Assembly: GCA_029263335.1 (NCBI GenBank) | Contig: JAJCXS010000263.1 | Span: 6,407 to 70,406 of the forward strand | Source: Acidobacteriota bacterium | Lineage (GTDB): Bacteria > Acidobacteriota > UBA890 > WLXD01 | Direction: 5' to 3' | DNA length: 64,000 nt | In this document: piece by piece, positions 1-23,868 of the stretch | Numbering within the stretch: position 1 is the stretch's first letter | Layout of the letters: each line of letters begins with the position of its first letter | The notes under the pieces: generated by a model | The model's database searches: none | Seen by the model: the letters and a program-made list of their open reading frames with translations, nothing else | Told to the model about the DNA's origin: nothing | Translations under genes and position numbers: made by a program

Positions 1-152
1 GAATGCCCGCACTTCTGCGATCAGGACTTCATACTCTGTATCGCCATGTGCGGAATAGCCATGGGAGATTGCGACGTGGATCCGGGCACGTGCGAGCGGT
101 CCCCGCTGGGCGTATAGCTCGCCGAACGGCCGTTGACGAACCGGAGCTAGGC

Positions 153-761
153 ATGCAAGCGGAACGCACGTCGCGAACCAGTCTCGCTGGTAGATTCCTG
201 ATCGTGAGTTCGATTGTCGTGGTCAGTGCGGTAGTGGTCGCGCTGGTCGACCAGAACCGACAACTCAAGGCCGCTCTCGGGAGTTCAGGATCGCCACAGG
301 CGCCCACGACCATCTCGTACGAGGCCGGTGACGAGCTGCCCAACATAGAGCTGGTGGGAATCACAGAGCCCGAATCGTCCGCTGGGCCACGCCTTCTGCG
401 AGATGTGGTCGGCGGAGCGGGCGTAGCGGCCTTTATGACGACGACCTGCCCGTACTGCGAGGAGGCGATTCCTAACTGGCAGCGGCTTGCGGAGGAAGTT
501 CGCGCGGATGGTTACAGGTTCGTGGCGATATCCCTCAGCATGCCAGATGTAACCGCTAGCTACGTTCGTGAACACGGCATTCGATACCCCGTTTGGGCGA
601 TCAACAGTCGATTTGCCTACGACAAGCTTCAGCTACGAGCGGTCCCGGCAACCCTATTGCTGGGCGAAGGGGCTTCCATCTTGGAGATAATGTACGGCGA
701 GCTACTCGGCGGAGACATTCGCGAACTCCGGGAGCGCCTGCTCGCAGTCGCGCCGAAGTGA
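153..761 (+). CDS. TlpA-like thiol-disulfide oxidoreductase (thioredoxin fold), membrane-anchored
   Basis: The ORF is 3..761; ATG at 153 precedes an N-terminal TM helix (FLIVSSIVVVSAVVVALV). It has a CPYC redox motif (TTTCPYCEEAIPNW). The stop overlaps the GTG start of the next gene (GTGA). The start could also be the ATG at 3. Confidence 0.65.
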   Translation: MQAERTSRTSLAGRFLIVSSIVVVSAVVVALVDQNRQLKAALGSSGSPQAPTTISYEAGDELPNIELVGITEPESSAGPRLLRDVVGGAGVAAFMTTTCPYCEEAIPNWQRLAEEVRADGYRFVAISLSMPDVTASYVREHGIRYPVWAINSRFAYDKLQLRAVPATLLLGEGASILEIMYGELLGGDIRELRERLLAVAPK

Positions 762-1906
762 GCGAGCACAGCGTCCCACTCAGCGACGGGCCGATCGGCG
801 TCAGGGTATTGGCGGCGCTGACATCAACGACCCTCCTGATGGCGGCGTGTGCGACGGGGCCGGAGATCCCGAGACCAGAGCCGCTCACTTATGAGCTGGA
901 ACGAATGTGGTCGGTTGGATGCACAGAATGCGATGGTCCTGCCCAATTCGGACGTCTAATAGACCTAGAGCTTGATCCCAGAGGTACGGTTCTCGCGTTG
1001 GACGCTAGAACTCCCTTCGTCCGTCGCATCACGGCTGATGGGAGCGCCGTTCAGGCCTTCGTTCACGATGGACAAGGCCCCGGAGAGGTCGAGTCCCCGC
1101 GGCTGGCCTTCAACACGGCCACCGGGGGGTTCGGTGTTGTTGAGTACTTTCGTCGGACGTTGCTACTCTACGATAGTAGGGGCGAGTATCTTCGGACAAT
1201 AGCTCTTGAAACTGGCCGAATCGTAACGGCCGACTACGCGCACGCGACATCGACGCTGCACGTCCTTCATGTGCCCATTCTAGAACGCGATGCGCCCTTT
1301 ATCCTGACGGCGGTCGGACTGGCACCGGGGGCCAAACCGGTTCGCGAGTTCTCGCAGTCACGTACTCGCGGAGTGGCGGCGCCAAGTTACTTCGTGTCGT
1401 TCGCGCGGGATTCAAACGGACGGGTGGCAATGGGTTTCGGGGATCGATACGAGATCATCCTCCTTGCCGCGAACGGAACGCCTGCCGGAGAGATACGGCG
1501 GTATCTCCCACGACGGCGGCGCCCAGCAGAGGAGGTCGAGCGACAGAGACGGGCAGTCGCAAGCGTCACCGGCACGTCCGGTCGGAACGTGGAGGTTGAC
1601 CTCTTCTATCGCCACTTCTATTTCGATGCGCTTGACTTCGCGTCGGACGGGAGTTTGTGGGTGCTGAGTGCCCGACGCTACGAGAACGGGACACTGTTTG
1701 ACGTCTTCGACGCAGACGGTCGGCTCTTGGGGTCGGCCGCGATCGATGGTTACGTGAAGCCCACATGTTCGTGTTTCGCTGTGGCCGGTCACCGGCTGGT
1801 GGCTGCAACGACAGGCTCGGACGGAGTTGATCGGGTTAGGGCCTGGCGAATTCCCGATTCACTGCGGTCCCGGACCCCGATCGATGCAGGGGCGAACTCT
1901 GGCTGA
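758..1906 (+). CDS. NHL-repeat 6-bladed beta-propeller lipoprotein (paralog 1)
   Basis: GTG at 758 is in frame with ORF 593..1906 and overlaps the TlpA stop. Lipoprotein-like signal (…TSTTLLMAAC). It has a CxxC (GCTECDG) and NHL-type motifs (GQGPGEVESP). The C-terminus ends VFDADGRLLGS, shared with the paralogs at 11233 and 15784. Confidence 0.55.
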   Translation: MSEHSVPLSDGPIGVRVLAALTSTTLLMAACATGPEIPRPEPLTYELERMWSVGCTECDGPAQFGRLIDLELDPRGTVLALDARTPFVRRITADGSAVQAFVHDGQGPGEVESPRLAFNTATGGFGVVEYFRRTLLLYDSRGEYLRTIALETGRIVTADYAHATSTLHVLHVPILERDAPFILTAVGLAPGAKPVREFSQSRTRGVAAPSYFVSFARDSNGRVAMGFGDRYEIILLAANGTPAGEIRRYLPRRRRPAEEVERQRRAVASVTGTSGRNVEVDLFYRHFYFDALDFASDGSLWVLSARRYENGTLFDVFDADGRLLGSAAIDGYVKPTCSCFAVAGHRLVAATTGSDGVDRVRAWRIPDSLRSRTPIDAGANSG

Positions 1907-2364: not shown

Positions 2365-2535
2365 CTCGTTTGGGGTTACCTCACTTTGGTGGACACCTGA
2401 ACGCTTGGATCCAAGGGGCTGTGCGGATCGCGAAGCGATCTGCATGGTCACGGCAGTTTCCACCACCGTCGCCGGGTCTGATCCATGCCTCCGCTCGTAC
2501 TGGATCGGTGAGATACCGCCGAGCGCGGGGTGGCG

Positions 2536-3318
2536 TCAACGTGGGTTGTAGAAGCCTTCGATGAGCTCGAAGATCGCCATCCGCGCCTCCGCATGGGTGC
2601 GGAACGTGTTGCGCCACAGCAGCTCCGTCTCGAGCGTCGCGAAGAAGCTCTCGGCCATCGCGTTGTCGTGCGCATCGCCGACTGAGCCGATCGAGGGCCC
2701 TACGCCGAGCTGTTTGCATCGCTTCCCGAACTGGATCGAGGTGTACTGCGTTCCCTGGTCGCTGTGGTGGATCACCTGGTCGGGACGACGCTGCCAGATA
2801 GCCATGTTGAGCGCCTCGAGCAGCAACTCTGTGCGCAGGTGGTTGGCCATCGACCAACCCACCACGCGGCGGGAGTAGGCATCCAGAACGATGGCCAGGT
2901 ACAAGAACCCCGCCCAGGTTGAGACATACGTGATGTCCGAGACCCACAGCTGGTTGGCAGCCTCCGCGCGGAAGTTTCGCTTCACGAGATCCGGTACAAC
3001 CCGGGCATCATTGCCACGGCGCGTCGTCCGAGAGCGTCGCCGTCGGCTCACGCCTTCCAGTCGTGCCTGCTTCATCAGCTTCGCCACACGGCGCCGAGAG
3101 ATCCGCACTCCGGCTTCGGCCAGCTCGGCGTGCACGCGCGGAGAACCGTTCGTGACACGGCTCTCGGTGTGGATCGTCTCGATCCGGGCACGCAGGCGCG
3201 CATCTTCGCGCGCCCATGGACTCAGCGGCCGTTGGCGCCACGCGTAGTACCCGCTGGTGGAGATCTCCAGCACGCGGCACATCGTGGCAACCGGGTAGTG
3301 TACCTGGTGCTCGCTCAC
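2536..3318 (-). pseudogene. IS3 OrfB (DDE transposase), C-terminally truncated by nonsense codon
   Basis: A TGA follows …FYNPR where copy 2 reads CGA (R) and continues ~70 aa further. The DDE residues are still present. Confidence 0.5.
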
Positions 3319-3398
3319 GAACTCGAACGCTTCTTGGGCACCGAGTCCGTCTCCTGTGCGAACCAGGCCGCGGCTTTTGCGAGGATTTCTCGCTCTAC

Positions 3399-3626
3399 CT
3401 AGAGCTGACGGTTCTCTCGACGTAGGCGCCGGATTTCCTCGCGCTCCTTGGTGCTCAGCCTCTCAGCTGTGTGCCCATCGTCGCGGTCCGCCTGCTTGAT
3501 CCACTGATGGATCGTCCAGTACGACGGCTCGAACTCCTGAGCCAGTTCGTAGGCGCTGCGGCCGGCTCTCGCCAGCTCGATGATCTGTTGCCGATATTCC
3601 GGCGGATACGGTTTCGTTCTTGCCAT
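3399..3626 (-). pseudogene. IS3 OrfA (HTH), prematurely terminated
   Basis: The start MARTKPYPPEYRQQ has a GGAGG 9 nt upstream. It ends …RRENRQL at TAG where copy 2 reads AAG (K) and continues ~33 aa further. The track ORF 3399..3740 over-extends 5' past the IS end. Confidence 0.5.
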
Positions 3627-4176: not shown

Positions 4177-4504
4177 ACAGCGTCGCCGCGCGTCGTCGCG
4201 GAAGAGATTCGCGACACTATTCGACACCCCGCGCAGAAGCCCGCAGTAGCGTCCGCGACGTGGCGCGTGAAGGAGTAGTAGGGGGGCATTGGGAACTCGT
4301 GTGAGACGCGGAGCGTTTTTCACAGTTTCCGCGTTGGGCGGCATGTTTGAAGAAAGATGGCCACTGATCCAGTCTTGGGTGGCACCAGAGGATCTTCTGA
4401 CAAGCATAACGACCACTGACCAAGCCCAAGATGCTCGCTACCAAGTGGGCTCGTAGAGGCTGGCGGAACACGGAGGCCAGCTCCGCGAGGAGTAGCAACT
4501 GGAG

Positions 4505-5503
4505 TTACCTCACTTTGGTGGACACCTGAACGCTTGGAGTTTGGGTACTCGTAGTAGTAGTGAAGTGGGAACTCGTGGGAGCCGCAGGGCGGCTTCCAAG
4601 GGGCTGTGCGGATCGCGCAGCGATCTGCATGGTCACGGCAGTTTCCACGTCCGTGACCGGCTCTGATCCATGCCTCCGTTCGTACTGGATCGGGGAGATG
4701 CCGCCGAGCGCGGAGTGGCGTCGACGTGGGTTGTAGAAGCCTTCGATGAACTCGAAGATCGCCATCCGCGCCTCCGCATGGGTGCGGAACGTGTTGCGCC
4801 ACAGCAGTTCTGTCTCCAACGTTGCGAAGAAGCTCTCGGCCATGGCGTTGTCGTAGGCATCGCCGACGGAGCCCGTCGAGGGACGCACCCCGAGCTGCTT
4901 GCATCGCTTCCCGAACTGGATCGATGTGTATTGCGTTCCCTGATCGGAGTGATGGATTACGTCCCCCGGCTGCCTTTGCCAGATGGCCATGTTGAGCGCC
5001 TCGAGCACCAACTCTGTGCGCAGATGGTTAGCCATCGACCAACCGACCACGCGGCGGGAGTACGCATCCAGAACGATGGCCAGGTACAAGAACCCCGCCC
5101 AGGTTGAGACATAAGTGATGTCCGAGACCCACAGCTGGTTGGCAACCTCCGCGCGGAAGTTCCGTTTCACGAGGTCCGGTACAACCTGGGCATCATTGCC
5201 GCGGCGCGTCGTCCGAGAGCGTCGCCGTCGGCTCACCCCTTCCAGTCGTGCCTGCTTCATCAGCCTTGCCACACGGCGCCGAGAGATCCGCACTCCGCCC
5301 TCGGCCAGCTCGGCGTGCACGCGCGGAGAGCCGTACGTGCCACGGCTCTCGGTGTGGATCGTCTCGATCCGGGCACGCAAGCGCGCATCTTCGCGCGCTC
5401 GTCGGCTCAGCGGCCGTTGGCGCCACGCGTAGTACCCGCTGGTGGAGATCTCCAGCACGCGGCACATCGTGGCAACCGGGTAGTGGACCTGGTGTTCGCT
5501 CAC
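4505..5503 (-). CDS. IS3 OrfB (DDE transposase/integrase), full-length frame
   Basis: 332 aa with the integrase core motifs. In the intact element it would be expressed as an OrfAB fusion by -1 frameshift, but orfA in this copy has a nonsense codon. Confidence 0.55.
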   Translation of the reverse strand: MSEHQVHYPVATMCRVLEISTSGYYAWRQRPLSRRAREDARLRARIETIHTESRGTYGSPRVHAELAEGGVRISRRRVARLMKQARLEGVSRRRRSRTTRRGNDAQVVPDLVKRNFRAEVANQLWVSDITYVSTWAGFLYLAIVLDAYSRRVVGWSMANHLRTELVLEALNMAIWQRQPGDVIHHSDQGTQYTSIQFGKRCKQLGVRPSTGSVGDAYDNAMAESFFATLETELLWRNTFRTHAEARMAIFEFIEGFYNPRRRHSALGGISPIQYERRHGSEPVTDVETAVTMQIAARSAQPLGSRPAAPTSSHFTTTTSTQTPSVQVSTKVR

Positions 5504-5811
5504 GAACTCGAACCCTTCTTGGGCACCGAGTCGGTCTCCTGTGCGAACCAGGCCGCGGCTTTTGCGAGGATCTCTCGCTCGACCTTGAGTTGACGGTTCT
5601 CTCGACGCAGGCGCCGGAGTTCCTCGCGCTCCTTGGTGCTCAGCCCCTCAGCTGTGTGCCCGTCGTCGCGGTCCGCCTGCTTGACCCATTGATGGATCGT
5701 CCAGTACGACGGTTCGAACTCCTGGGACAGTTCGTAGGCGCTGCGGCCGGCCCTCGCCAGCTCGATGATCTGTTGCCGATACTACGGCGGATACGGTTTC
5801 GTTCTTGCCAT
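5501..5811 (-). pseudogene. IS3 OrfA with nonsense codon at codon 10
   Basis: It reads MARTKPYPP then TAG (5782-5784), where copy 1 has GAA (E). Otherwise the frame is full length, ending …KKGSSS*. Confidence 0.5.
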
Positions 5812-5866: not shown

Positions 5867-6553
5867 GCCTATGGCTTTGGCGACCTCGAGGGGGCTGCGG
5901 AGGGGTTCGGCCGCGCGGCCGAGGCAGCGCCGACGGTGGGGGACCCATTCTTTGGGTTGGCGTTGACCTACGAGGCGCTCGGAGAATGGGAGGACGCTGC
6001 GGTTGCCTACGAGTCCGCGCTCTGGTCGCGGCCAGGTTCGCCGGTCTTCCATGCAGGCTTGGGCGCTGCTCTTCAGCACTCCGGAGACACGGCCCGGGCC
6101 GCCTTGCACCTGGTGCGTGCGATCCGAGGGGGGATGTCGGGGGAGCAACTACGCGTAGGGCCGTTGGATGCCGTGGCCTCCACCGAGCAATCCCGGCGGC
6201 TGGCCGGCGTTCCGGTGCTTCACTGGCGGAGACCCAACGTGGCTAGCCTTGAATCGCAGGTAGCAGTTCGTGGAGCGGTTCTCGCCATAGGTCGGTTGCT
6301 GGACACTTCGCCGGAAGTGGTGCTGACGGAATGGCCAATCCAGGGCGTCCGGTCGCTGCACCTGCGCGTTGAATCTGTCGACGGAGCCGGGAATCGTGCC
6401 GAGACGGAACTCGAGCTGTACGACGTGACCGGCAAGCGTGTCGCGACTTGGCCGGTGCAGTTTGATGACCTGCGGGATGCAGATGAGGTGGCGCGTCTGG
6501 CGCGGGACGTGGTGACACGACTCCTTCGGCACGTGTCCGACGGAGAGTTGTGA
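5867..6553 (+). pseudogene. 3' fragment of a vWA-TPR family gene (paralog of 13683..15728), 5' end cut by IS copy 2
   Basis: The frame is open from the IS boundary, with no start. TPR-like repeats and a C-terminal region align with the C-terminus of the 681-aa protein (…DADEVARLARDVV… vs …NLDEVADELEASF…). Confidence 0.5.
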
Positions 6554-6557
6554 TCAA

Positions 6558-7095
6558 TTGTCCACCTTCGGATACCGCGAACGGGTACTGTGCCTGACGA
6601 CGGCTGATCGGGCTCGGCGTCGGTTCTCAGTCCGTTTAACGCCGCGCACCCCTCGAGCCTTCATTCTAGGGCTCTTCTTTGCCGTCACATCTTTCGTGGC
6701 CTGGCCGCAGGAGCGCCAGGGACCATTTCGTTCGACCGCGGGGGCCGTGACCATCGGCGTAGGCGTTGTTGATGGAGACGGCCGACTCGTGGCCGGCCCG
6801 GGCCCTGACAGCTTCTCCGTCCGTGTCGGAGGATCGCTCCGAGAGATCATCGACGTTCGCGAGATCGGCACCCCGCGCACGAGCGACGAGGTGGGGCGGG
6901 ACTTTGTCCTTCTGTTCGACCTCTGGACAGGGTTCCCGCGTCGTGGAAGAACGATCTCGCGACTCGTATCTGGTCACTTTTGCCACGGTTCCCGGCGACT
7001 CCGGGCTGCTGGCTGTCGATGTCCAGGTGAACGGTCCGGGCGTGAGCTTGTCGTGGGCCCCGCTGGAGATCTCAGTCCTGGCCCCGACTCGTTGA
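6558..7095 (+). pseudogene. frameshifted N-terminal fragment of an FRS-module/vWA family gene
   Basis: It begins with a signal-like segment, then QGPFRSTAGAVTIGVGVVDGDGRLVAGPGPDSFSVRVGG (the same module as in 8850..11048 and 13683..15728), then FVLLFDL. The frame breaks after that; a second frame continues to 7095. Confidence 0.4.
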
Positions 7096-7216
7096 CCCAT
7101 CGCAAGATCTTGCTTCGTCGAGCTCGCCCCAGAGCCGTACTAGAACGCGCGTGGACTGCTGTAACTGGCTGATCGGCACGGGCTCTACGTGGGAGTAGCG
7201 TCGCGCACGGCCCCGC

Positions 7217-8849: not shown

Positions 8850-11048
8850 TCACTGGCCCTGGACCCATACCGGCAGCTCCGCAGTTGCCCGCGTGCCCGC
8901 CACGAGATCGTGGACGGTCATCTGGATCGTGTGGAATGACGAGGTCAGCGTGTGGGGCAGTTCGACGCCTGCTAGCACCTGGATGGCGCCGGTGGCCGGG
9001 TCGCGGTCTTGCTCGATCACCCGTGCGCGTTCTACCGCCACCACGTTGCCCGTGGGGTCGAGTAGTCTGATCTTGACCTCCCAGGTTGGCTGCAGCGTAG
9101 ATGGGTTGAGGGCGAATCCGTGCATCTGGGAGTAGAACTGCACGACGTCTCCCGGGGCCGCCGTGGCGATCGCCGCCGGGGTGAGCTCGAAGTCGCCGAG
9201 CGCGAAGGGGAACGCCACCGGGCCGTCTTTCTTGTGCTCCGGAGGGTTGTCTGGGTCGAAGCCTCGAAGCATGAGACCGGGGTGCTGCCAGTCGATCGCC
9301 ACCGGCCCGTCGATGAATAGCCCTGCACGTGACCGGTGCGGCACGGGCACATCGTCGGTGCGCGCGCTGATCAGGCCGACCTCCGCATCGCGGATAATCG
9401 TGCGCACCTGGTTGAGCCCGGGACCCGACCACATCAGGTTGTAGTAGTGGAAGGGCAGCCCCGCGCTGCTGCTGTTTCGCATTCGCGCGAGATCGAGGAT
9501 CACCTGGCCGTCCGCCAAGTCCATCATCGTGCCCGAGCTGTTTAGCAGGTAGCTGAACATCTCGAGCTCGACCGTGTCATCGTTGCCGGCCCCCGCTAGC
9601 GCTTCGAGTTGTTCCCATGGCACCTCCACGATCACCGCCACTCGGCTGATGTCGTTCTCGCCCGCGAACGGGGTCACGGCGGTCTCGAACGCCAGTGAGC
9701 TATCCACCAACCCCTTGCTGATGAACTCGGCTAGCTGCGCCTGTTGCTGCATGGGCGACATGGTCTCGAACTTGCCCGGCACGGTCAGCCGCGAAGCGGC
9801 CGAGGTCACGACCGCGGCGTCGCGCCGGACGCTAACGTCGATGTCGAAGCTATCCGGGTCCTCGGGGCGGCGGGGTACGGCCAGCACGTAGTAATTGCGG
9901 GCAGCACGCTCGATGTCGCTCAGCCCGCTCACGATCTTGTTGGTGTTCCAGACGACCGAGCCACCGGTCCCATCGGCCCATATCGTCAGCGAGTTTCGTC
10001 CTGACCTGGTCCTTGCGCCCAGGAGCGAGGGCCTGAAGTTCCCCGGGTCACTGCCCCGGTCGCGTCCACCGGCGAGGCCTGACACGTCGATCATATGCAG
10101 CAATGCGTCCGCTTCCCTCAGGTCCCCGACGGCATCGTCGATCGCGTCGCGCACGTCGGCGCTGCCAAAGCGCTCCTCCGACCCAATCGAAGCGAGGCCT
10201 TCGCCAGGGTTCGTCTGGATCCGATTGGAATCGGCCGCTAGCTCATCGAGAGACTTGCCCACGAGCACTCGGTCCTCGAACCCCTCGGTGAAGAACAGCA
10301 CATGCTTGCGCCCGCGGATGACTTGCATCAGTTCGCCTAGCTGTTGGAGCTGGCTCGCGTAGCGAGCGACGAAGTTGGTGTATTGGGCGAACTCGGACCG
10401 TTTCACCATTCCTATGATCTCCTCGATCGCAACATCGGCCTCGGTCTTGCCACCCGAGGCATCGCCCGCCCCGGCCGCCCCCTCCATAAGATCGGCGATG
10501 AAGCCGGCGCGGTCGATGTTGCGAGTGGCCTGGGTCAGTCCGAGCCCGTCGATCGCGGTCCGGATCTGCACGCGGTCGCGCGTCAGGGGCACGATCGTGC
10601 GAACACCTTCGACCACGTTGTAGGTGACGACACTGACGAGGTCCTCGGGCAGCACGCTCTCGTCGAGAAACGCCAACGCGGCCTTGCGCGCCTCGAGAAC
10701 ACCGCGCGGGGAGTTGAACGCGGCATCGAACAGCATGACCCACTGACGCCAGGCCGCCGCGGGCAACGAGGAGTAGGGGAGCGGCCCGCCGTCCCTGGTG
10801 CCCCGGGGCGCGCGATTGACCTCGTAGGCGAGGACAAGCTCCCGCGGCTCACCGTCGACCCGAACCTCGAAGTCCTGAGTCACCAGCCCGGGAACGAACA
10901 GGCCTTCGTCGTCGGCTACGTTCACCTGAAACTGGATCAGTTCCACGTTGCTGCGGAACTGTGGCCGGGGCAGCGACTGTGCCCATCCGACCGTCTTCGG
11001 GAGGCATGCCAGCAACACTAGAACCGTAACTCGCGCGCGCCAGGCCAT
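8850..11048 (-). CDS. exported vWA-domain protein with conserved N-terminal 'FRS' module (resembles the VWFA-related Acidobacterial domain family)
   Basis: Signal peptide (MAWRARVTVLVLLACLPKTVGWAQS). The N-terminal module is PQFRSNVELIQFQVNVADDEGLFVPGLVTQDFEVRVDGEPREL. A vWA core (VMLFDAAFNS…) follows, then a long C-terminal region. Confidence 0.65.
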   Translation of the reverse strand: MAWRARVTVLVLLACLPKTVGWAQSLPRPQFRSNVELIQFQVNVADDEGLFVPGLVTQDFEVRVDGEPRELVLAYEVNRAPRGTRDGGPLPYSSLPAAAWRQWVMLFDAAFNSPRGVLEARKAALAFLDESVLPEDLVSVVTYNVVEGVRTIVPLTRDRVQIRTAIDGLGLTQATRNIDRAGFIADLMEGAAGAGDASGGKTEADVAIEEIIGMVKRSEFAQYTNFVARYASQLQQLGELMQVIRGRKHVLFFTEGFEDRVLVGKSLDELAADSNRIQTNPGEGLASIGSEERFGSADVRDAIDDAVGDLREADALLHMIDVSGLAGGRDRGSDPGNFRPSLLGARTRSGRNSLTIWADGTGGSVVWNTNKIVSGLSDIERAARNYYVLAVPRRPEDPDSFDIDVSVRRDAAVVTSAASRLTVPGKFETMSPMQQQAQLAEFISKGLVDSSLAFETAVTPFAGENDISRVAVIVEVPWEQLEALAGAGNDDTVELEMFSYLLNSSGTMMDLADGQVILDLARMRNSSSAGLPFHYYNLMWSGPGLNQVRTIIRDAEVGLISARTDDVPVPHRSRAGLFIDGPVAIDWQHPGLMLRGFDPDNPPEHKKDGPVAFPFALGDFELTPAAIATAAPGDVVQFYSQMHGFALNPSTLQPTWEVKIRLLDPTGNVVAVERARVIEQDRDPATGAIQVLAGVELPHTLTSSFHTIQMTVHDLVAGTRATAELPVWVQGQ

Positions 11049-11104
11049 GTGCGTTCCGCTCCTCAGGGGACGAGGTGGATCGTATTCGTCGCGAGTGAAC
11101 TCAA

Positions 11105-11130
11105 CAACAGGAACCCGGTGATTCCCTGTT
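11105..11130. promoter_or_regulatory. inverted repeat AACAGG-N14-CCTGTT in divergent promoter region
   Basis: It lies between the divergent vWA gene (8850..11048) and NHL gene (11233..12597). Confidence 0.25.
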
Positions 11131-11232
11131 TTACGGGATGCGCGGCCCCGTGTCGTAGATTTCCTCCTGATGCGGTCTTACTAGGCAGGACGCGGACCGA
11201 GGCTGACGGTCGTCCCTACGCAGGAGGGCGAG

Positions 11233-12597
11233 ATGAGTTCACGAGACAGGTGGGGGGGGCTTTGTCGCGGGCGGCGGCTCGTCCGGATGAACGCACTTGC
11301 CGTTGCCGCCCTGGCAGCCTCGGCATGTTGGGCTCCGGAGTCAGGGACAAGCGTGAGCGGTCCGGGCAGCTGGCGCGGCGAAATCCTGTCGGGCGAGGTG
11401 ACAACCGTACGTACCTTGGATGGTCTCGCCTGGGACGTGCCATACAGCCTTGACCTCTCGTTCAGCCTGGGTGCGGAAGAAGGCGCCGATGGCCCACTCT
11501 TCGGGGCACTGGGCGGGGTGGCCGTTGGTGAATCCAGAATCTACGCCGTCGATAACGAAGCCCAGGTGGTCAGGGTCTACGACCTTGGCGGAAGGTACGT
11601 GGGCGATATCGGCGGACCCGGCGAAGGACCCGGAGAGTTTCGATATCCGAAAGGAGTGGGGCTCACCGCCGATGGACGTCTGCTCGTTCAGGACAATTCA
11701 GCCCGAGAGATCCACGTGTTCGATGCGAGCGGGCAGTTCCTCGAATCGTGGCGCCGGCCGCTCATCACCAAGATCTGGGACGACCGGTTCCTCGTGACTC
11801 CCGAGGGGAAGGCCTTCATCTGGGAACTCCAGAACCCGGGCGAGGCCGACAGTGACGACTGGGCGATGACGCGGTATGGCCAGGACGGGCTCGAGGATCT
11901 GACCATCGCGACGCCCGCCTTTGGAGAGAACGAGGATTATGTGCGCTGGGGGCTCGGATGGGACGCTGGCGCAGCTGCTGAGCCGTTCGCCATGATCCGA
12001 CAGTGGGCGATGACTCCTGATGGAACGCTGGTGGTGGCGCCCGCTGATGAGTACCAGCTGGAAATCCGTCCTCTCGGCGGGGCTGCCTGGCACATAGAGC
12101 GCGCTGTTGATCGTGTCGCTGTGCAGCCAGGGGAGTTCGAATGGGCAGTCCGCAACATCGTTCTCGCGGCGCGCGCGCAAAGCCCGGGATGGGAGTGGAC
12201 CGGCTCGACATCGCCGGATACCAAGCCCTTCGTGAAGAGGGTGTACTGGGGCGGGAGCGGAACGCTCTGGGTTCTTCGCGAGCTGGAGGCTACGAGGGTT
12301 GCGGGCTGTGCGACCGCTTCCGAGGACCTGACCCAACGACTCGAACGACCGTGCTGGAAAGCGAACCAGGTATTCGAGGTCTTCGATGCCGACGGCCGTC
12401 TGGCGACGGTTGTCCCGTACACCGGCAGGATCCACCAGTTCGTGCCCCCGGTGATCTCGGACGACGCGGTCCTGATGGCAGAGGAAGACGCGAACGGGAA
12501 CGCGATCCTGTCGTGGTATCGCCTGGTGCCGGGACCGGGTGATGAGGGTCCCGCTCGGCGTTACGAGCGGCTAGACGGCGGTTCGGGGATCAGGTGA
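11233..12597 (+). CDS. NHL-repeat 6-bladed beta-propeller lipoprotein (paralog 2)
   Basis: AGGAGG lies 5 nt upstream of the ATG. Signal/lipobox (…LAVAALAASAC). NHL motifs (GGPGEGPGEFRYPKGVGLTADGRLLVQDNSAREIHVFD). The C-terminus carries a …RPCW…VFDADGRL motif. Confidence 0.6.
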   Translation: MSSRDRWGGLCRGRRLVRMNALAVAALAASACWAPESGTSVSGPGSWRGEILSGEVTTVRTLDGLAWDVPYSLDLSFSLGAEEGADGPLFGALGGVAVGESRIYAVDNEAQVVRVYDLGGRYVGDIGGPGEGPGEFRYPKGVGLTADGRLLVQDNSAREIHVFDASGQFLESWRRPLITKIWDDRFLVTPEGKAFIWELQNPGEADSDDWAMTRYGQDGLEDLTIATPAFGENEDYVRWGLGWDAGAAAEPFAMIRQWAMTPDGTLVVAPADEYQLEIRPLGGAAWHIERAVDRVAVQPGEFEWAVRNIVLAARAQSPGWEWTGSTSPDTKPFVKRVYWGGSGTLWVLRELEATRVAGCATASEDLTQRLERPCWKANQVFEVFDADGRLATVVPYTGRIHQFVPPVISDDAVLMAEEDANGNAILSWYRLVPGPGDEGPARRYERLDGGSGIR

Positions 12598-13257
12598 CGG
12601 CCGTCGGGCTGCCGCACTCGTCAGGTGGAGCATGCGGACGAGGCCGGCGAACACCCACGAGCCGACGATGCTCTGGACGAGAACGAGTGCCACATAAACG
12701 TACGCTGGCGCCGACGGTGCCCCGGGACTTTGGAGCGCAGCGTAGAGAGCCACGCACGAGATCGTGACCGAGCTGACGAGCAGGTAGGCAGGGTAGATGT
12801 CGCGCAGCTCCCATCCAAGGCCTCGCCGGCGGAGGATCACTGGCCCGAAGGCCATCATCGCCAGCAGCGGGAGCGTCTGTAAGTGGCCGTTCGTGGTGAG
12901 CTTGGCAACGATGATTATGGCGAGCCCGCCAGCCAAGCCGAGGGCGCATTCTGCGCGGAGGAGAGTCTTCTTTGTCGAGTCCATTGGTAGCTCCGAGTTG
13001 AGTGAGCCGCAAGCATCGCGCCAGGTTGCCCCCTCCCGCGCGGCGCGATGCTGGGCGCGTAGAAGGTCGAGGTCGCCCAGCTCTAGCTTGGCGACCTTTC
13101 TCGCGTTGTCCGGGGCCATTCCCGCGGCACGCTTGTCAGCGGTCAGTTCCCGGAGGTGCGTTCGCAGTTCCGCTTCGAAGTCGCGGTCAAGCTGCACGCG
13201 GTTGAGCCGGCACCATATCTGATGGCCCAGGCGTCGAAAGGCCAGCCAGCTCATCAC
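12571..13257 (-). CDS. PadR-associated membrane protein (permease-prefix-like N-terminal domain + 4 TM, no FtsX domain)
   Basis: The N-terminus (LAFRRLGHQIW…DFEAELRTHLRELTADKRAAGMAPDNARKVAKLELGD) resembles the prefix region of Acidobacterial PadR-linked permeases. Four TM helices follow. It overlaps the PadR gene by 4 bp. Confidence 0.5.
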   Translation of the reverse strand: MMSWLAFRRLGHQIWCRLNRVQLDRDFEAELRTHLRELTADKRAAGMAPDNARKVAKLELGDLDLLRAQHRAAREGATWRDACGSLNSELPMDSTKKTLLRAECALGLAGGLAIIIVAKLTTNGHLQTLPLLAMMAFGPVILRRRGLGWELRDIYPAYLLVSSVTISCVALYAALQSPGAPSAPAYVYVALVLVQSIVGSWVFAGLVRMLHLTSAAARRPSPDPRTAV

Positions 13258-13592
13258 TGACTTCCAGCCGGGACGAGCGCTGTTTGCATGATCGCCGCAA
13301 GGCGCTGCCAGGCATCTGTCTCGCGTGCCAACTGCCTGCTTCCCGGGCCAGTGATCAGGTAGAACTTAGCGCGGCGATTGTTGTCGGAAAGCCCCCACTC
13401 GGAACGAATCCAGCCATTCTGTTGGAGGCGCACGAGCGAGGCGTACACGGTGCCGGGGTTTAGCGAGAGCTGATGGGAACTCATCTCCTCCAGCAGCTTC
13501 CCAATGCCATATCCGTGCATGCGGCCCTGTGCTGCCAGCGTCTGCAGTACGAGGAGATCGAGGGTGCCGGGCAGTAGGTCGAGCTTGTCCAT
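13254..13592 (-). CDS. PadR-family transcriptional regulator
   Basis: MHGYGIGKLLEE…LNPGTVYASLVRLQQNGWIRSEWG…NNRRAKFYLITGPG is a canonical PadR wHTH. Confidence 0.8.
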   Translation of the reverse strand: MDKLDLLPGTLDLLVLQTLAAQGRMHGYGIGKLLEEMSSHQLSLNPGTVYASLVRLQQNGWIRSEWGLSDNNRRAKFYLITGPGSRQLARETDAWQRLAAIMQTALVPAGSQ

Positions 13593-13682
13593 AGCGCCTC
13601 CATTGGTTGGGCCAAAGGTACAGCTACGACCTCTCTTTGGTCAAGCCAAAGATAGGGGATACGGAAATCTGCTGATCCGGGT

Positions 13683-15728
13683 CTATTCGGGACGCTGGTG
13701 GATCCCTCGCACGGCCTCTTCGATCGTGCGGAACGACGCTTCCAGCTCGTCTGCGACCTCGTCGAGGTTCTGGGTGTCGTGTATTCGAAATGAAGTGGTC
13801 GCCCACTCGCGGCCCACGGGATCTTCCACGACCAGCTGTCCTTGAACGGCGATCCAGGGGCCGTTCGCGCTCGCTTCGGTGATTCGTATCCTCAGCAGGA
13901 GGTCACTGGACTCCAGTGCCCAACCGGTCTGCATGACATCTGACCTCTCGGCGAGGTTTACAACCGCGGCCGTCAATCGAGGTGATGCGAGCATCGCGAT
14001 GAGGCCCCCGGACGTTTCGGCTTGGACGGCGATCCGCGGGTTAACCGGTGGCTTCGTCAGGTCGACCGGACGGGCCGCTACGAGCTGCAGCTTCTCGATG
14101 AGTTCCGCGACTTCCGAACCTCGGTAGTGAGCGCTCAGGGCGCGTTCCCAGGCGACCTCGAAGTTCCCCACTTCGAATTGCGCGTGAGCGACTCGAGCAT
14201 TCAGATCGGGAAGCCACGGGGCATGTTTGCGGGCCTCCTCGAACGCCGGGAGACTCTCCTCGTGGCGGTACAAGCCAGCGAGAGCGAGAGCCCGGCCGTA
14301 GTGCGTGAGCCCAAGCGCCGGTCCTAGCGATACCGCTGTGCCGAACCGCTGTAGCGCCCGCTCGGTCTCTCCTTCCGCCAGTTCTCGAAAACCACGCAGG
14401 GCGACATCCATCGCCGCGCCTTCTGACTTGCCCTGACCTGTCACGAGATCCGCTACGGTCAGAACCTCCACGTCGTTGCGATCGACACGGACCTCGATTT
14501 CCGATTCCTGGATGAGAGCAGTTGCGTTCTCAGGGTCGGTGGTTGGCACGAAGCCGAGGACGTAATGCCCACGCAGCGCCTGCCCTAGACGTTCCATACC
14601 TTGAATAGCGGTGCGTTGTCCTCGTAGTTGCGTCTGGACGTACTTTCCGGTGTGCCTCTCGAACCTGCCCTTGATGGCCCGAAGGACGATTCCGCCCGTG
14701 TACTTGGCCAGGGTCTGGAGCGGGCCCACGTACGCGTCGTTTGCGTTCGCCAACCGCTGTCTCGTGCGGACGCTCGCGGTGGCGCGAGGCTGCATGGGAC
14801 CTACGGCGAGTGCGAAGACCGGGATGCCGCTGCCCCAGGCGCTTAGCAGCACGTCCTCCAGGCGTGCCTGGCTCGCGGTGTCTCGCTCGTCGGTCACCAT
14901 CACCACGGCGCGGCGGACTTCTTCGCCTTGCTGTTGCGGTCGGGTAACTACGCAGCTGCCCTGCGCGGGCATCGACGGCGTGATTCGGGCCGCGGGCGAC
15001 CGAAAGCGCATCAGCTGGGCGAAGTCTAGCGGCGAGGTGATTGTCACCGATGCGCCCGATCGTGCTCTCAGGGCCGTGAATGCAGCGATAAGGGAGTCGT
15101 ATGCAGCCTCACTCGGTCCGACCTGGGGTATCTGGTCGATCGTGTTCCTGAGTTGTGGATCTGAAGGATGCCCCCAAATGCCCTGGGCCACGCGCTCACG
15201 GAATGGGAGAAGGAGCACGCAACTCGATGGGTGAAGTTCGTCCAGAAGCGTATGGAAGACATCCCGTGACGACCATTTCATCATGCTCCCGCTGGCATCC
15301 ATGGCAATGGCCACTTCGAGGGGTCCGTTCTCAGGACCGAAGAACACCGACAAGGGGCGTTCTTGACCGTCCTGCAGAACGACGAAGTCCGACGGGTCCA
15401 GGTCCGTAACCGGACCGCCGTCCCTCGCGAACACCGCCACTTGAAGGCGGACGATCTCCGCTGTGGAGCGGAACGTCGGCCGATCCTGCATCCCCTGCGC
15501 AGTGGTGCTGTGCAGAAGAAGGGCCGCGGCAAGCAGACACGTCCTGTGCCGCTGGCGCTGCCCTGCGCGGGGGCGCCCCGCTTTCATGGGGGATGGGGTC
15601 TCGTCGGCGAGTCCCCAGACGACGAAACCACTGGCGACGCTCAGAAGCGACACGATGGCCGTGATGGCCCAGTTGGATAACAACGGCCGGCCACTAGTCT
15701 CGTCTGCCGCCGGCTCCCTACCGTTCAC
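13683..15728 (-). CDS. membrane-anchored FRS-module/vWA/TPR protein (paralog of 8850..11048)
   Basis: It has an N-terminal TM/signal, then the module DRPTFRSTAEIVRLQVAVFARDGGPVTDLDPSDFVVLQDGQERPLSVF. It has vWA (VAIAMDASGSMM), TPR-like repeats and a C-terminal domain. It is co-directional with the NHL gene 55 bp upstream. Confidence 0.65.
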   Translation of the reverse strand: MNGREPAADETSGRPLLSNWAITAIVSLLSVASGFVVWGLADETPSPMKAGRPRAGQRQRHRTCLLAAALLLHSTTAQGMQDRPTFRSTAEIVRLQVAVFARDGGPVTDLDPSDFVVLQDGQERPLSVFFGPENGPLEVAIAMDASGSMMKWSSRDVFHTLLDELHPSSCVLLLPFRERVAQGIWGHPSDPQLRNTIDQIPQVGPSEAAYDSLIAAFTALRARSGASVTITSPLDFAQLMRFRSPAARITPSMPAQGSCVVTRPQQQGEEVRRAVVMVTDERDTASQARLEDVLLSAWGSGIPVFALAVGPMQPRATASVRTRQRLANANDAYVGPLQTLAKYTGGIVLRAIKGRFERHTGKYVQTQLRGQRTAIQGMERLGQALRGHYVLGFVPTTDPENATALIQESEIEVRVDRNDVEVLTVADLVTGQGKSEGAAMDVALRGFRELAEGETERALQRFGTAVSLGPALGLTHYGRALALAGLYRHEESLPAFEEARKHAPWLPDLNARVAHAQFEVGNFEVAWERALSAHYRGSEVAELIEKLQLVAARPVDLTKPPVNPRIAVQAETSGGLIAMLASPRLTAAVVNLAERSDVMQTGWALESSDLLLRIRITEASANGPWIAVQGQLVVEDPVGREWATTSFRIHDTQNLDEVADELEASFRTIEEAVRGIHQRPE

Positions 15729-15783
15729 CAGATTACTCAGTTTGCGCGAAGGACCCTCCCACGGCGAGAAGCCGCGGCCATCC

Positions 15784-17142
15784 TCAGTCGGGGACGATCA
15801 AGCGATACAGCTGTAGAAACGAGTTGCCGTCGCGCCCTTTCATGTGAATGAGCACGAGGTCCCGGCGAACTACCGGATGCGGGATCAGCTGTGCGCCGAC
15901 GGGCAGGGCCACGGTTCCAACGTACGTTCCGTCCACGCGGAAAGCGTCCATAGAGTACGTATCTTCCCAACACGGCGACTCCCTGAATTCGTCCACCGTG
16001 TCCGCCGCATCGTTGCAGGCCGACCAACGCTTTCCCCTGCCAGCTCGAATCACCCAGAAACGACCGCGATCGTCCGCAGCGATACCGGCGAAGAAGGGCT
16101 TGCGCAATGGGAACGCGTCCCTGTTCGGTAGCCAACCCGACGCTGCAGTCCCCCGTTTGATCGCCGCCGCGACCCTTCCGCGATGCCAGTTGCCCTCGCC
16201 GAAGGCGATGGCCGATGCCTGTCCGCGAAGTTCAAGGTGGGCGCTTTGCAGCGTCCCGCCGTAGTGCAGGTCGATCAGCGGATCGTTCGCGATCCCGATC
16301 GCGATGCTGCCTGAGGGCGCCACCGCCCAGTGGGCCCGTGGGAAGAACGGCGCATCTATTAGGACCGTGTGTCGTTCGTTTAGCTGCAACTCGACGCGCG
16401 TCGCCTCGAAGCCGAGATGCGGTACGGCGCGTGTCTGTAGCTCTCCTCGCAAGTCGCCAGCGTAGGTGACGATAGACCACTTGTTCTGGTACGGACCTGG
16501 CCCTAGTCGTTCCATGACCGCTGGCAGCAAGACCGACCCGTCGGCAGCTACCACGAAAGCTACGTTGTCGACCGCCGTCGACCTCGTATCGGTCCGCGTC
16601 GATTCCAGGTGCGCTCCATTGGCGTCGAATTCGAGAAAGGACATCCGATCGCGGACCCAGACGTGACCCGCCGAGTCGGTCGTGATCACTCTTGGCGCCC
16701 CGTACTCCCCGGGCCCTTCTCCCTGACGTCCGACGAGGCCTGCATGAGTACCCCGAAAGTCAAAAGCATGGACGACCTGGTTGGCCGCAGCACCGTCAAG
16801 GGCATAGATACGGGTTGGGCCGACCGACATACTCTTCACGCTATTGAAGAAGTACTCTGGCCGGTTCTCCCCAGGCCCACCGATTGTTGCGATCAACTCC
16901 AGAGCGGCACGGGCACCCCACTCCGAGTCAGCCATTGAGCTGCCCGCCGCTACGTCTCCCCAGTCGCCGGCAACGCCGTCTTCCGGAGAGCCGTAGTCCT
17001 CGCGCCCCGCGAGCAAGGAGCCGACCGGCTCCGACTCGTCAGCACACGAGGCCATCAGCAAACTAGCAACCAGCAGAAGCCCGGCGAAGCGTTGCGAATC
17101 CAAACCACAAGTTGCGACTCCTCGCCAGACTTGATTTGACAA
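15784..17142 (-). CDS. NHL-repeat 6-bladed beta-propeller lipoprotein (paralog 3)
   Basis: Lipobox (LLVASLLMASC). NHL motifs (GGPGENRPEYFFNSV…; GRQGEGPGEYGAPRVITTDSAGHVWVRD). C-terminal …SPCW…FRVDGTYVGTV as in paralog 2. Confidence 0.6.
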   Translation of the reverse strand: MSNQVWRGVATCGLDSQRFAGLLLVASLLMASCADESEPVGSLLAGREDYGSPEDGVAGDWGDVAAGSSMADSEWGARAALELIATIGGPGENRPEYFFNSVKSMSVGPTRIYALDGAAANQVVHAFDFRGTHAGLVGRQGEGPGEYGAPRVITTDSAGHVWVRDRMSFLEFDANGAHLESTRTDTRSTAVDNVAFVVAADGSVLLPAVMERLGPGPYQNKWSIVTYAGDLRGELQTRAVPHLGFEATRVELQLNERHTVLIDAPFFPRAHWAVAPSGSIAIGIANDPLIDLHYGGTLQSAHLELRGQASAIAFGEGNWHRGRVAAAIKRGTAASGWLPNRDAFPLRKPFFAGIAADDRGRFWVIRAGRGKRWSACNDAADTVDEFRESPCWEDTYSMDAFRVDGTYVGTVALPVGAQLIPHPVVRRDLVLIHMKGRDGNSFLQLYRLIVPD

Positions 17143-17348
17143 TGGAGTTGTCTCACAGATCAGGGGGGTGATTTGGAGCGATGTCCGCGGGCGCCACTGG
17201 CCTGCGTCGTCATAAACAGCGGGAGCGGTGTGTTTACGAGATTCGGACGCCGTCTGACCGTGGCGACAGGTGCCCTATCGTCCAATAACGGCTCAATAAT
17301 GATTAGATGATTGTGAAAGGGACTGTAAACAGTCAAAATTGATCTGTT

Positions 17349-17702
17349 GTGAAGAACCAACGTGGCACGGATAAGGTCGTTCTCGAGGACTTGGGAACCC
17401 GGATAGCCCGGCATCGCCTCAATCGCGACTGGACGCAGCGACGGCTGGGCGACGAAGCCGGCGTGTCGTTGCCGACCGTTTCGCGGCTCGAGCGGGGCGA
17501 GTCGACGAGTTTGGTGAACCTCGTCCGTGTGTTGCGCGCGCTAGGTCTGCTGGACAATGTCGCCGATCTGGTTCCGGACATTCCTTTGAGTCCAGTGCAG
17601 CAACTTCGCAGCAGCCGGCCGACGAAGCAGCGTGCGTCGCGGCGACGGCAACCCGACAAGGTCACTCGGCCGCGCCCCTGGCAATGGGGTGACTCACAAT
17701 GA
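17349..17702 (+). CDS. hipB: HipB-like XRE-family HTH antitoxin
   Basis: HTH_XRE (…RLGDEAGVSLPTVSRLERGE…). Its stop overlaps the hipA start (ATGA). It is preceded by an AT-rich region. Confidence 0.6.
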   Translation: MKNQRGTDKVVLEDLGTRIARHRLNRDWTQRRLGDEAGVSLPTVSRLERGESTSLVNLVRVLRALGLLDNVADLVPDIPLSPVQQLRSSRPTKQRASRRRQPDKVTRPRPWQWGDSQ

Positions 17703-18991: not shown

Positions 18992-19052
18992 TCTCCAAGC
19001 ATGGAGGGGAGGTCGTGGCCGGACGGGCGGTGATGGCCTTCAGGACCGTGAG

Positions 19053-19439: not shown

Positions 19440-19720
19440 CGCTGGGCGCGGTCTTCAGACAGCTCGGTGAGAAGCTCGTCGATGGGGGCAACGGGCGCCG
19501 ATGGCGGCGGCGCGCCAGGCCCGGTCGCAGGCGCCGTGACGATGCCGCGTTCCACCAAGTCCCTGAGCACGAGCGAGCGGCCCTCCTGCCCAAGGGCGTG
19601 GACCCCCTGGCGCAGCACCTCAGAGCGGGATACGCCGCGCTCGTTCGCAACGCGGTCGAGTTCGGCGCGCTCCTTGGCAGTGAGATAGGTCTGGATGGGT
19701 TCTCGAACGGTTCGTTCCAT
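19436..19720 (-). CDS. vapB: VapB antitoxin (ribbon-helix-helix/CopG-like)
   Basis: TYLTAKERAELDRVANERGVSRSEVLRQGV is an RHH motif. Confidence 0.65.
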   Translation of the reverse strand: MERTVREPIQTYLTAKERAELDRVANERGVSRSEVLRQGVHALGQEGRSLVLRDLVERGIVTAPATGPGAPPPSAPVAPIDELLTELSEDRAQR

Positions 19721-19721
19721 G

Positions 19722-22194: not shown

Positions 22195-22446
22195 GTGCCG
22201 TACTCCCTGTGCGATCGTCGCTCGAGCCATCGATCGCAGTGTGACGCCTCACGTAGCGTGAGGGTCACGGGCGGCTACTCGCAGCGACGGAAAGTCCGTG
22301 ATCGCCTGGTGGAGACCTGTGATAATGCCTGCGCGGTCGCCGCTTTCGCGCGGCTCGCCGGAACTCATGCGGCCTGGAACAGACCCGAGCACAGTCGGAG
22401 TACGGCGCGGACCGCGCTGCTTCGCTGCCAACACGGTGGAAACAGA

Positions 22447-23868
22447 ATGAGATCAAGTGCGCGCACCTTCGTCGTCCGGTCGTTGGTCCCTGGGGCCCTG
22501 ATGGTTGTCGTCGCGGTGCTCGTGTCGGCCTGTGGCGGTGGCGGCGCCGCGAGCATGGACGATGAGGCGGTGACTTCGGGCTCATGGGCGGAGGCGACCG
22601 CGGCGATGGCCGACGGGCGCTTCGACGAGGCGGCGCGGTACTTCGAGCAACGAGTCGAACTCGGCCCCGACCGATTCTTGATTTCGTACAACCTGGGGCT
22701 GGCGCTGCACGGCGCGGGCCGTTACTCGGAGGCACTGCAGGCTCATTTTGTGGCGGCGGCTTATAGCCAGAACCGCGGTGCCGCGCTGTTCAACGCGGCC
22801 CGTACCTTCGCGCAAATGGGCGACGGTGAGCGTGCTCTGCGCTGGTTGGATCTTGCCGTCGCCAGCGGCTTTGACGATCAGGATGGTGCGCGCAACGAGT
22901 CGGACCTGGCCGCGCTCCACGACGATCCACGCTTCGTTCGCATCCTGGCCACCATTCCCGTCGTTGGCGGTCGAGGCATGCCCGCGGACCACCCGGCCTA
23001 TCGCTCACCCTGGCATGCGAGTTCCGAGCGCATCGAGGTTCGAACGCTGGGTGGCCCGATTCCGGGCCGCACCGGCGGATTGGCATTGGCGCCGAACGGC
23101 GACCTGGTCGCGGGCGATTTCGCCAGCACGGTCCATCGAGTGTCGCCCGAGGGGGCGCGCGAAACGCTGCTTGTGGATGTCGAGGGAGCCTCGGGCAACG
23201 TCTTCGATCGGGAAGGCAATCTCTACCAGGCACACTTCAGCGGCAACACACTGACGGTCACCACGCCCGGGGGCGAAACGCGGACGCTCATCGGCGAAGG
23301 CCTTGCGGGTCCGGTAGGGGTCGTGTTCGACAGCGCTGGCGCGCTCTATGCCGCCAACTGTGACGGCCAGTTCATTTCGAAGTGGACACCCGGGGGAGAG
23401 AACGAGAGGTTCTCGTCGGGGCCGTTGTACTACTGCCCCAACGCCCTCGCGGTGGACGATGAAGACAACCTGTACGTGGCCAATTTTCACGATGGCGTGA
23501 TCGTGAAGGTGACCCCCGATGGTGAGGCCACATTCCTGGCCAACATTCCTGGCGGGGGCGCCAGCTATATCGTCTACCTGGACGGAGTTCTCTACGTCAA
23601 CGGCAACAAGTCGCTTCGGGTCTATCGTCTGACCTTGGACGGCGAGTTGTCCGTGATCGCCGGAACGGGCGAGCGCGGTGGAACCGACGGACCTGCGCGG
23701 CAGGCCACCTTCGCCAAGCCCAACGGCCTCGCCGTGAGCCCCACAGGTGCTTGCCTGTACGTCAACGACAACCGTGGAGACTGGCGCGATGGTGCCAACG
23801 AGGAGGGGCTCCTCCAGGAGAGCACGATCCGCGTCATTCATCTCGACCCGGATCGCGCCTGCCAGTGA
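22447..23868 (+). CDS. lipoprotein with N-terminal TPR region fused to a 6-bladed (NHL/SMP-30-like) beta-propeller
   Basis: GGTGGA lies upstream of the ATG at 22447. Lipobox (AVLVSAC). TPR-like segment (YNLGLALHGAGRYSEALQAHF…). Propeller repeats (GPVGVVFDSAGALYAANCDGQ…; NALAVDDEDNLYVANFHDG…). Confidence 0.55.
   Translation: MRSSARTFVVRSLVPGALMVVVAVLVSACGGGGAASMDDEAVTSGSWAEATAAMADGRFDEAARYFEQRVELGPDRFLISYNLGLALHGAGRYSEALQAHFVAAAYSQNRGAALFNAARTFAQMGDGERALRWLDLAVASGFDDQDGARNESDLAALHDDPRFVRILATIPVVGGRGMPADHPAYRSPWHASSERIEVRTLGGPIPGRTGGLALAPNGDLVAGDFASTVHRVSPEGARETLLVDVEGASGNVFDREGNLYQAHFSGNTLTVTTPGGETRTLIGEGLAGPVGVVFDSAGALYAANCDGQFISKWTPGGENERFSSGPLYYCPNALAVDDEDNLYVANFHDGVIVKVTPDGEATFLANIPGGGASYIVYLDGVLYVNGNKSLRVYRLTLDGELSVIAGTGERGGTDGPARQATFAKPNGLAVSPTGACLYVNDNRGDWRDGANEEGLLQESTIRVIHLDPDRACQ

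Follow-up and report, generated by a model that had tools for sequence, protein, structure and literature searches.

Along 64,000 nucleotides of contig JAJCXS010000263.1 from an Acidobacteriota bacterium (the window), genes for exported proteins with a von Willebrand factor A (VWA) domain stand repeatedly beside genes for beta-propeller lipoproteins of the NHL type, and the question raised by this locus is whether such neighbourhood marks a working partnership. An initial annotation had proposed the two families as a candidate envelope system, undescribed and functionally coupled. The open reading frames (ORFs) on which that proposal was built all exist where they had been placed, and the adjacency is real: VWA1 and the propeller gene NHL2 are divergent with a spacer of 184 bp, and a second VWA gene, VWA2, lies next to the propeller gene NHL3 (Table 1). 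The evidence described here makes it rather probable that the window holds co-amplified, binding-type families of envelope paralogs in a variable island, and not a dedicated system.

Co-localisation of the two families was followed in two censuses, whose loci are designated by L numbers. The first, anchored on the VWA genes, compared the VWA1 family alignment with one genome per GTDB species and yielded 79 loci (1.42 Mb, 157 VWA ORFs), all from metagenome-assembled genomes of Acidobacteriota or Thermoanaerobaculia. The second, anchored on the propellers, compared the propeller alignment with metagenomes of the Joint Genome Institute (JGI) and yielded 80 loci (0.62 Mb, 136 propeller ORFs). Clustering of neighbours was filtered by codon-position GC. 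A propeller within 10 kb was found in one of the 79 VWA1-family loci, L027 (GC 37%), where it lies directly downstream of the VWA gene, co-directional and with a gap of 39 bp. A VWA gene was found in two of the 80 propeller loci, namely L151 (GC 32%), with the order propeller, VWA, VWA, gaps of 104 and 123 bp and a neighbouring VWA protein that scores 169 bits with the family model TIGR03436, and L139, with a VWA gene 1.8 kb from the propeller. Immediate neighbours of propeller arrays were a VWA gene in 1 of 89 cases, an ADOP permease in 2 and other genes in 86, and a propeller beside a VWA array was counted in none of 167 cases by the automated tally and in about 1 of 168 with the AT-rich L027 added by hand. 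About 98% of the loci of either family have no partner within reach. VWA genes most often have further VWA paralogs beside them, and propellers stand mostly next to propellers, forming arrays with as many as eight copies. At the family level the co-localisation test thus failed (1/79, 2/80, about 1% of flanks), no conserved co-localisation beyond chance being found across genomes, and the proposal of a coupled system is not upheld.

The same result was obtained from the relatives of individual genes. Full-length, highly conserved VWA1 orthologs with 43–49% identity have no propeller neighbour in L008, L009, L016, L023, and L170. Nearest-neighbour BLAST of the sporadically paired propellers led to loci without VWA genes, the closest kin being L113 (53%) and L156 (50%) for the propeller of L027 and L130 (40%) for that of L151. 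The propeller of L096 has no VWA gene within 10 kb; its contig of 1,311,091 nucleotides, equal in length to the longest contig with the VWA1-like P0037, is probably that same contig. No VWA-propeller fusion was detected with hidden Markov models (HMMs) of both families in a set of 166 propeller ORFs and 252 VWA ORFs, nor was one present among the 150 best propeller representatives from a search of 1.84 billion proteins.

Inside the window three propeller genes and four VWA genes or gene fragments lie within 17 kb and none elsewhere, HMM scans of the remaining 47 kb having found no further member of either family, and this clustering is non-random. The recurrence of the pairing within the cluster had been put forward as an argument for functional coupling. 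When the 13 island genes outside insertion sequences (IS) were shuffled, all three propellers touched a VWA gene in 14% of the orders, and when the nine genes at 7.2–17.1 kb were shuffled, two intact pairs resulted in 11%. As random gene order gives a p of about 0.11–0.14, given that both families are concentrated there, the recurrence is not independent evidence and the argument loses its force. Hallmarks of an island are two IS3-family copies, VWA pseudogene fragments and a low codon-position GC contrast at 1–7 kb, with HipA and PIN toxin genes at 17.7–19.4 kb just outside the 17-kb island. The contrast is weaker at 1–7200 than in the rest of the window, and NHL1 and the redoxin gene beside it fall below the threshold for GC at third codon positions (GC3), which fits a degraded or recently acquired segment.

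The expectation that the pairing would be met elsewhere was borne out in close relatives of the window, beyond which only the sporadic cases given above are found. L005–L007 contain a VWA1 ortholog with 79% amino acid identity, the nucleotide identity of 83% being confined to the gene. This ortholog is accompanied by an intact propeller (155 bp downstream) and, upstream, by the pseudogene of a propeller; the flanks have no synteny with the window. L003 contains a propeller (45% identity to NHL2), a further propeller and then a VWA2-like gene (29% over 546 amino acids). Two propeller subclades can be distinguished, A, which is NHL2-like and has a Cys...PCW loop, and B, which has no such loop and no member in the window. 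The propeller of L005 belongs to subclade B, with 22% identity to NHL2 in the family alignment. The partners are thus swapped between relatives: VWA1 adjoins an A-type propeller in the window and a B-type propeller in L005, and the VWA2-like gene of L003 follows an A-B pair. In L004 and L168 VWA2-like genes (about 41–43% identity) occur with no propeller, the three propellers of L001 are unaccompanied by a VWA gene, and in L002 a propeller adjoins an ADOP permease, with a VWA gene of the type with tetratricopeptide repeats (TPR) 5.8 kb away.

The N-terminal module of the VWA proteins had been likened to TIGR03436 (acidobact_VWFA, the VWFA-related acidobacterial domain; model length 324, curated cut-off 81.25 bits), and for VWA1 this assignment stands. 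Its residues 29–410 match model positions 1–311 of 324 at 124.2 bits, whereas residues 84–422 of VWA2 match positions 1–315 at 68.5 bits (E=7e-19), which is below the cut-off; by its sequence VWA2 represents a related, divergent subfamily. The N-terminal FRS module described as common to the two proteins does align between them (37% over 54 amino acids, E=3e-5) and is the only part in which their pairwise similarity is detectable. An AlphaFold2 model of VWA1, obtained with 29 homologs, has a predicted local distance difference test score (pLDDT) of 81.5 and yields a signal peptide, a short N-terminal beta module, a Rossmann-like VWA fold with helical inserts, and about 280 residues of beta-sandwich domains, in this order. 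The best local Foldseek matches are tandem domains like those of immunoglobulins (Ig-like) and fibronectin type III (FnIII-like) in PrgB, RbmA, and the C-terminal domains of AgI/II. A TPR-like region had been ascribed to the VWA family as a whole; VWA2 gives weak hits to TPR_19 and TPR_2 at residues 475–524, while no TPR was found in VWA1, where the beta-sandwich region takes this place.

The two proteins differ also at the MIDAS (metal ion-dependent adhesion site). In VWA1 this position reads D108-A-A-F-N and not DxSxS, so that both serines are replaced, and in its orthologous family (29 sequences, residues 104–113) FDAxFNS replaces DxSxS, with F107 and D108 invariant. VWA2 and its relatives carry a canonical DASGS MIDAS in which D144 and S146 are invariant. 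Judged from these residues, metal dependence is probably not the same in the two subfamilies. Alignment with the homologs P0014–16 was used to assign the start of VWA2, which is probably M48 (base 15587). With this start the protein has a cleavable signal peptide, and the gap to NHL3 becomes 196 bp in place of the 55 bp first reported.

Of the three propeller lipoproteins that had been called paralogs, two deserve the name: NHL2 (34.7 bits) and NHL3 (23.1 bits) pass the Pfam gathering score of PF17170/DUF5128 (22.9 bits) and share 28% identity over 395 amino acids (E=3e-34). NHL1 gave no match to PF17170 and is a distant relative (E=5e-6 to NHL2). The family has the six-bladed propeller fold, and its profile matches NHL domains in the PDB with E=1e-57 and the structure 4raa with E=6e-7, as well as the fusions of thioredoxin-like (Trx) and NHL domains SOQ1 and NHLRC2. 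A lipobox cysteine closing the hydrophobic signal segment is kept in 12 of 13 aligned propellers, and a lipobox-like motif in 26 of 31 single-domain representatives; the lipoprotein call was made by sequence inspection and not by a dedicated predictor. The C-terminal motif PCW...VFDADGRL does not extend over the three window propellers as initially stated, PCW being limited to NHL2 and NHL3 and VFDADGRL to NHL1 and NHL2. In the search of 1.84 billion proteins 12,178 representatives were retrieved at E<=1e-30, mostly multi-NHL giant proteins; single-domain proteins of 407–470 amino acids make up 31 of the top 150, with PCW in 24 of the 31, and by these sequence counts the subfamily is not rare.

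Propellers of subclades A and B follow one another in turn along tandem arrays in which stop and start codons overlap (L087, L003, L169; Table 1). This A/B pairing is more regular in the window's lineage than the pairing with VWA genes, and the alternation might indicate heteromeric propellers.

According to the reading preferred here, the first 17 kb would be a variable accessory island with two IS3 copies, in which families of exported envelope proteins that expanded in the lineage (TIGR03436 VWA proteins, DUF5128/NHL propellers, and the pair of PadR regulator and permease-prefix protein) would have undergone amplification and shuffling next to one another, each family diversifying through local duplication into paralog arrays. 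The adjacency of VWA and propeller genes would then stem from co-amplification and rearrangement within one island of one lineage and not from an obligate two-component machine, and physical coupling of the products would presumably be absent. As far as roles can be read from architecture, VWA1 with its beta module, VWA fold, and tandem Ig-like domains may be a binder of adhesin or matrix type that lacks a working MIDAS, VWA2 with its intact MIDAS and TPR may be a BatB-like, metal-dependent binder or scaffold, and the propellers may be lipid-anchored binding platforms, all of them presumably situated in the cell envelope.

Several observations weigh against this reading. The adjacency recurs in the window's lineage without synteny of the flanks (L005–L007, L003), which neutral hitch-hiking would not obviously predict. 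About three of five independent co-occurrences are adjacent, where about 12% would be expected for random placement within 10 kb (rough binomial estimate, p about 0.01–0.02). The distant co-occurrences in low-GC loci are usually immediate and co-directional with short gaps (39 bp in L027, 104 bp in L151). That the adjacency rate of about 1% lies at or only slightly above chance is plausible, the per-genome copy numbers used here being assumed values. Finally, in a Thermoanaerobaculia/Acidobacteriota clade with VWA orthologs that are 64–81% identical, one or two genes for BNR/Sortilin-type propellers of about 360–390 amino acids lie directly upstream of one to three TIGR03436 VWA genes and point the same way (a gene for 2-oxoglutarate dehydrogenase comes next in L050 and L070), which hints at a broader propeller-VWA theme.

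The same recurrences without shared flanks, the pairing found twice in the window, the immediate co-directional neighbours in L027 and L151, and the BNR-type propellers preceding VWA arrays in another clade would suit a facultative two-part envelope module, in which the NHL-propeller lipoprotein docks, anchors, or presents the secreted VWA protein, a propeller face contacts the VWA domain, and any propeller subtype serves. It would also suit this module that all partners are predicted to be exported and that the MIDAS of VWA2 is intact. We regard it as unlikely, though deserving of serious attention, in view of the roughly 98% of loci without a partner, the VWA1 orthologs conserved without a propeller neighbour, the unpaired close kin of paired propellers, the swapping of partner subtypes between relatives, the lack of fusions in the proteins searched, and the replaced MIDAS serines of VWA1. 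A wider version, drawn by analogy, is doubtful. In it exported beta-propellers and TIGR03436 VWA proteins of Acidobacteriota-type bacteria would make up a modular apparatus for binding at the surface, with parts mixed and matched, in which a propeller subunit would pair with a VWA subunit as a bacterial counterpart of the integrin head. The propeller would be an NHL/DUF5128 lipoprotein in the window's lineage and of the BNR/Sortilin type in the Thermoanaerobaculia clade, with the genes adjacent only sometimes.

It is improbable that the propellers are tied to other neighbours, either to the TlpA-like redoxin as a periplasmic redox pair or to a PadR/ADOP-permease module, with the VWA genes as bystanders. 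The translational coupling of one propeller gene to a redoxin gene, noticed already in the initial annotation, is real, the redoxin stop codon overlapping the GTG start of NHL1 at 758 (GTGA), and a redox link would also accord with the match of the propeller profile to SOQ1 and NHLRC2 and with the Cys...PCW pair, which is conserved in NHL2, NHL3, and most relatives; a redoxin query, however, found no match in loci L001–L167. Of the 80 propeller loci, 10 contain an ADOP permease, with the orders PadR-ADOP-propeller-propeller in L090 (414–5744) and ADOP-propeller in L002 (7055–11248), and the pair of PadR and prefix-protein genes in the window (12571–13592) abuts NHL2. Yet ADOP, itself a highly expanded family, directly adjoins the propellers at no more than 2 of 89 array flanks, and NHL2 and the prefix-protein gene are convergent and not co-transcribed. 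Pure coincidence, the families having come together in one assembly with no shared history, would agree with the broad census rate of about 1% and the within-island permutation result, but it is very improbable and already disfavoured, as the adjacency is repeated on independent contigs of relatives (L003, L005–L007), an independent Logan assembly reproduces the locus, and the clustering of both families in 17 kb of the window is non-random.

Table 1. Positions of features in the window and of gene blocks in other loci
Feature	Position	Strand	Evidence
TlpA/ResA-like thiol-disulfide oxidoreductase, membrane-anchored, CPYC motif	3..761	+	PF00578 AhpC-TSA 33.9 bits; ResA subfamily E=2.4e-9
NHL1, distant propeller lipoprotein member, lipobox LMAAC	758..1906	+	BLASTP vs NHL2 E=5e-6; custom propeller HMM 57-63 bits
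IS3-family copy 1, rve + HTH_21 transposase; right boundary approximate	2371..3462	-	Pfam; direct repeats D1, D4
IS3-family copy 2, abuts truncated VWA2-like fragment; right boundary approximate	4500..5781	-	Pfam; repeats
VWA2-like gene, 3' fragment (TPR + C-terminal region)	5936..6553	+	VWA2-family HMM positions 387-603, E=1.5e-11; TPR hits
VWA1-like gene, 5' fragment (N-terminal module + VWA piece), frameshifted or deleted	6558..7172	+	tblastn, HMM
VWA1, exported TIGR03436 protein, degenerate MIDAS (DAAFNS)	8850..11048	-	NCBIfam HMM
NHL2, six-bladed NHL/DUF5128 propeller lipoprotein	11233..12597	+	PF17170
Membrane protein bearing permease prefix domain 1, similar to a truncated ADOP permease	12571..13257	-	NF038403 42.5 bits, cut-off 30
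PadR regulator, acidobacterial paralog family	13254..13592	-	TIGR03433 114.7 bits, cut-off 101.8; PF03551
VWA2, exported VWA-TPR protein, canonical MIDAS	13683..15728	-	TIGR03436 below cut-off; weak TPR_19, TPR_2
NHL3, NHL2 paralog, upstream of and co-directional with VWA2	15784..17142	-	PF17170, BLAST
CAAX/Rce1-like protease	21457-22230		
TPR + classical NHL propeller fusion, other NHL subfamily	22195..23868	+	Pfam TPR_16/TPR_19, NHL/SGL/TEN_NHL
Trypsin-like serine protease and 924-aa M14 carboxypeptidase-domain protein, both exported, beyond TPR-NHL fusion	23927-27524		
A-B-A-B propeller array	L087 89-5470		
A-B-VWA array	L003 24-2506		
B-A-B propeller array	L169 2-2840		
BNR-propeller/VWA block	L032 6073-12094		
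BNR-propeller/VWA block	L050 3016-12082		
BNR-propeller/VWA block	L052 7587-12100		
BNR-propeller/VWA block	L070 7523-12097		
BNR-propeller/VWA block	L086 7607-12112		

The remnants noticed at 5867..7095 do belong to the VWA family. They derive from two genes, a VWA2-like one, of which the 3' part is left and which was probably truncated by IS insertion, and a VWA1-like one, of which the 5' part is left. In the latter a tblastn search with amino acids 6–115 of VWA1 matches 6654–6941, and the VWA1 HMM matches with its positions 21–113 (E=2.3e-8) and, in another frame, with positions 354–432. The two IS3 copies are in direct orientation and about 91% identical, with the direct repeats D1 and D4 at 91–97%. 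The same IS end sequence (95–97% identity) occurs in L005 at 7439–7497, just downstream of the propeller. The genes for the prefix-domain membrane protein and PadR overlap by 4 bp, and the former converges on the 3' end of NHL2 with an overlap of 27 bp. The fusion of TPR and propeller in one polypeptide, cited earlier as weak support for an interaction of the two, is a real gene, and as its propeller belongs to a different NHL subfamily and its TPR part resembles VWA2 only in a generic way (20 bits) it lends no support to such a link; the propeller-family HMM did not detect it.

A toxin-antitoxin stretch at 17343–19729 comprises HipA and PIN, each with a small ORF upstream. In L168 a VWA2-like gene and a convergent VWA1-like gene enclose a MazE-PIN pair at 2179–2824. 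Neither tRNA nor Rfam features were found in the window, promoter and terminator scans of the locus gave signals at shuffle level, PADLOC returned no relevant defence-system match for any of eight proteins, and exact-product look-ups for P0013, P0014, and P0019 gave no match on record. The gene families present (TIGR03433, TIGR03436, perm_prefix_1) point to a genome of Acidobacteriota type.

The two families, large and uncharacterised, are typical of soil phyla that are abundant, and a partnership, if true, would therefore offer a first way into their function. The census shows instead that, where paralog families have expanded within a lineage, their adjacency is only weakly indicative of function. 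What has been gained are structural models of both families, the loss of the MIDAS in the VWA1 clade, and the alternating A/B propeller arrays, and the BNR-propeller/VWA synteny block may be a better target.

Among known families the closest to the VWA proteins is TIGR03436, which occurs in Acidobacteriota as multi-copy tandem paralogs. VWA1 matches this model end to end above and VWA2 end to end below its cut-off; signal peptide, FRS beta module, and VWA fold are common to the two. In contrast to the family model the VWA1 subfamily has lost the serines of DxSxS and adds about 280 amino acids of C-terminal Ig-like domains, and VWA2 adds TPR repeats and a C-terminal domain. The propellers match in fold PF17170/DUF5128 (4raa, BF0058 of Bacteroides fragilis) and NHL propellers such as Brat and TRIM71, and the window family carries a lipoprotein signal. 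From other DUF5128 proteins they are set apart as a distinct subfamily of 407–470 amino acids with a helical insert and the Cys...PCW loop; with eukaryotic NHL domains, which are cytosolic RNA- or protein-binding modules, they have only the fold in common. A full-text literature search by accession for TIGR03436 and DUF5128 found no papers and no described function, and a broader literature search on VWA-propeller pairing found nothing.

The likeness of VWA2 to BatB of the Bacteroides Bat aerotolerance operon is limited to the VWA-TPR layout and the fold, the FRS N-terminal module and the C-terminal domains of VWA2 not being features of BatB. The Bat operon contains a MoxR ATPase, DUF58, BatA, BatC, and BatD. 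A Bat-operon reading was rejected, as no MoxR, DUF58, or BatA/C/D was found among the candidate ORFs in 1–27 kb scanned with Pfam. The fusions of Trx-like and NHL domains in NHLRC2 and SOQ1 are echoed by the redoxin translationally coupled to NHL1; here the genes are separate, the match is weak, and a redoxin lies beside only one of the three propellers. In the integrin head, formed by the alpha-propeller and the beta-I domain, and in PilY1 ligands are bound at a cell surface by a beta-propeller acting together with a VWA-type domain, and the comparison with the window is an analogy, homology extending no further than the generic folds, which are here encoded on separate genes. The genes of the window are new members of known but uncharacterised families, TIGR03436 and PF17170.

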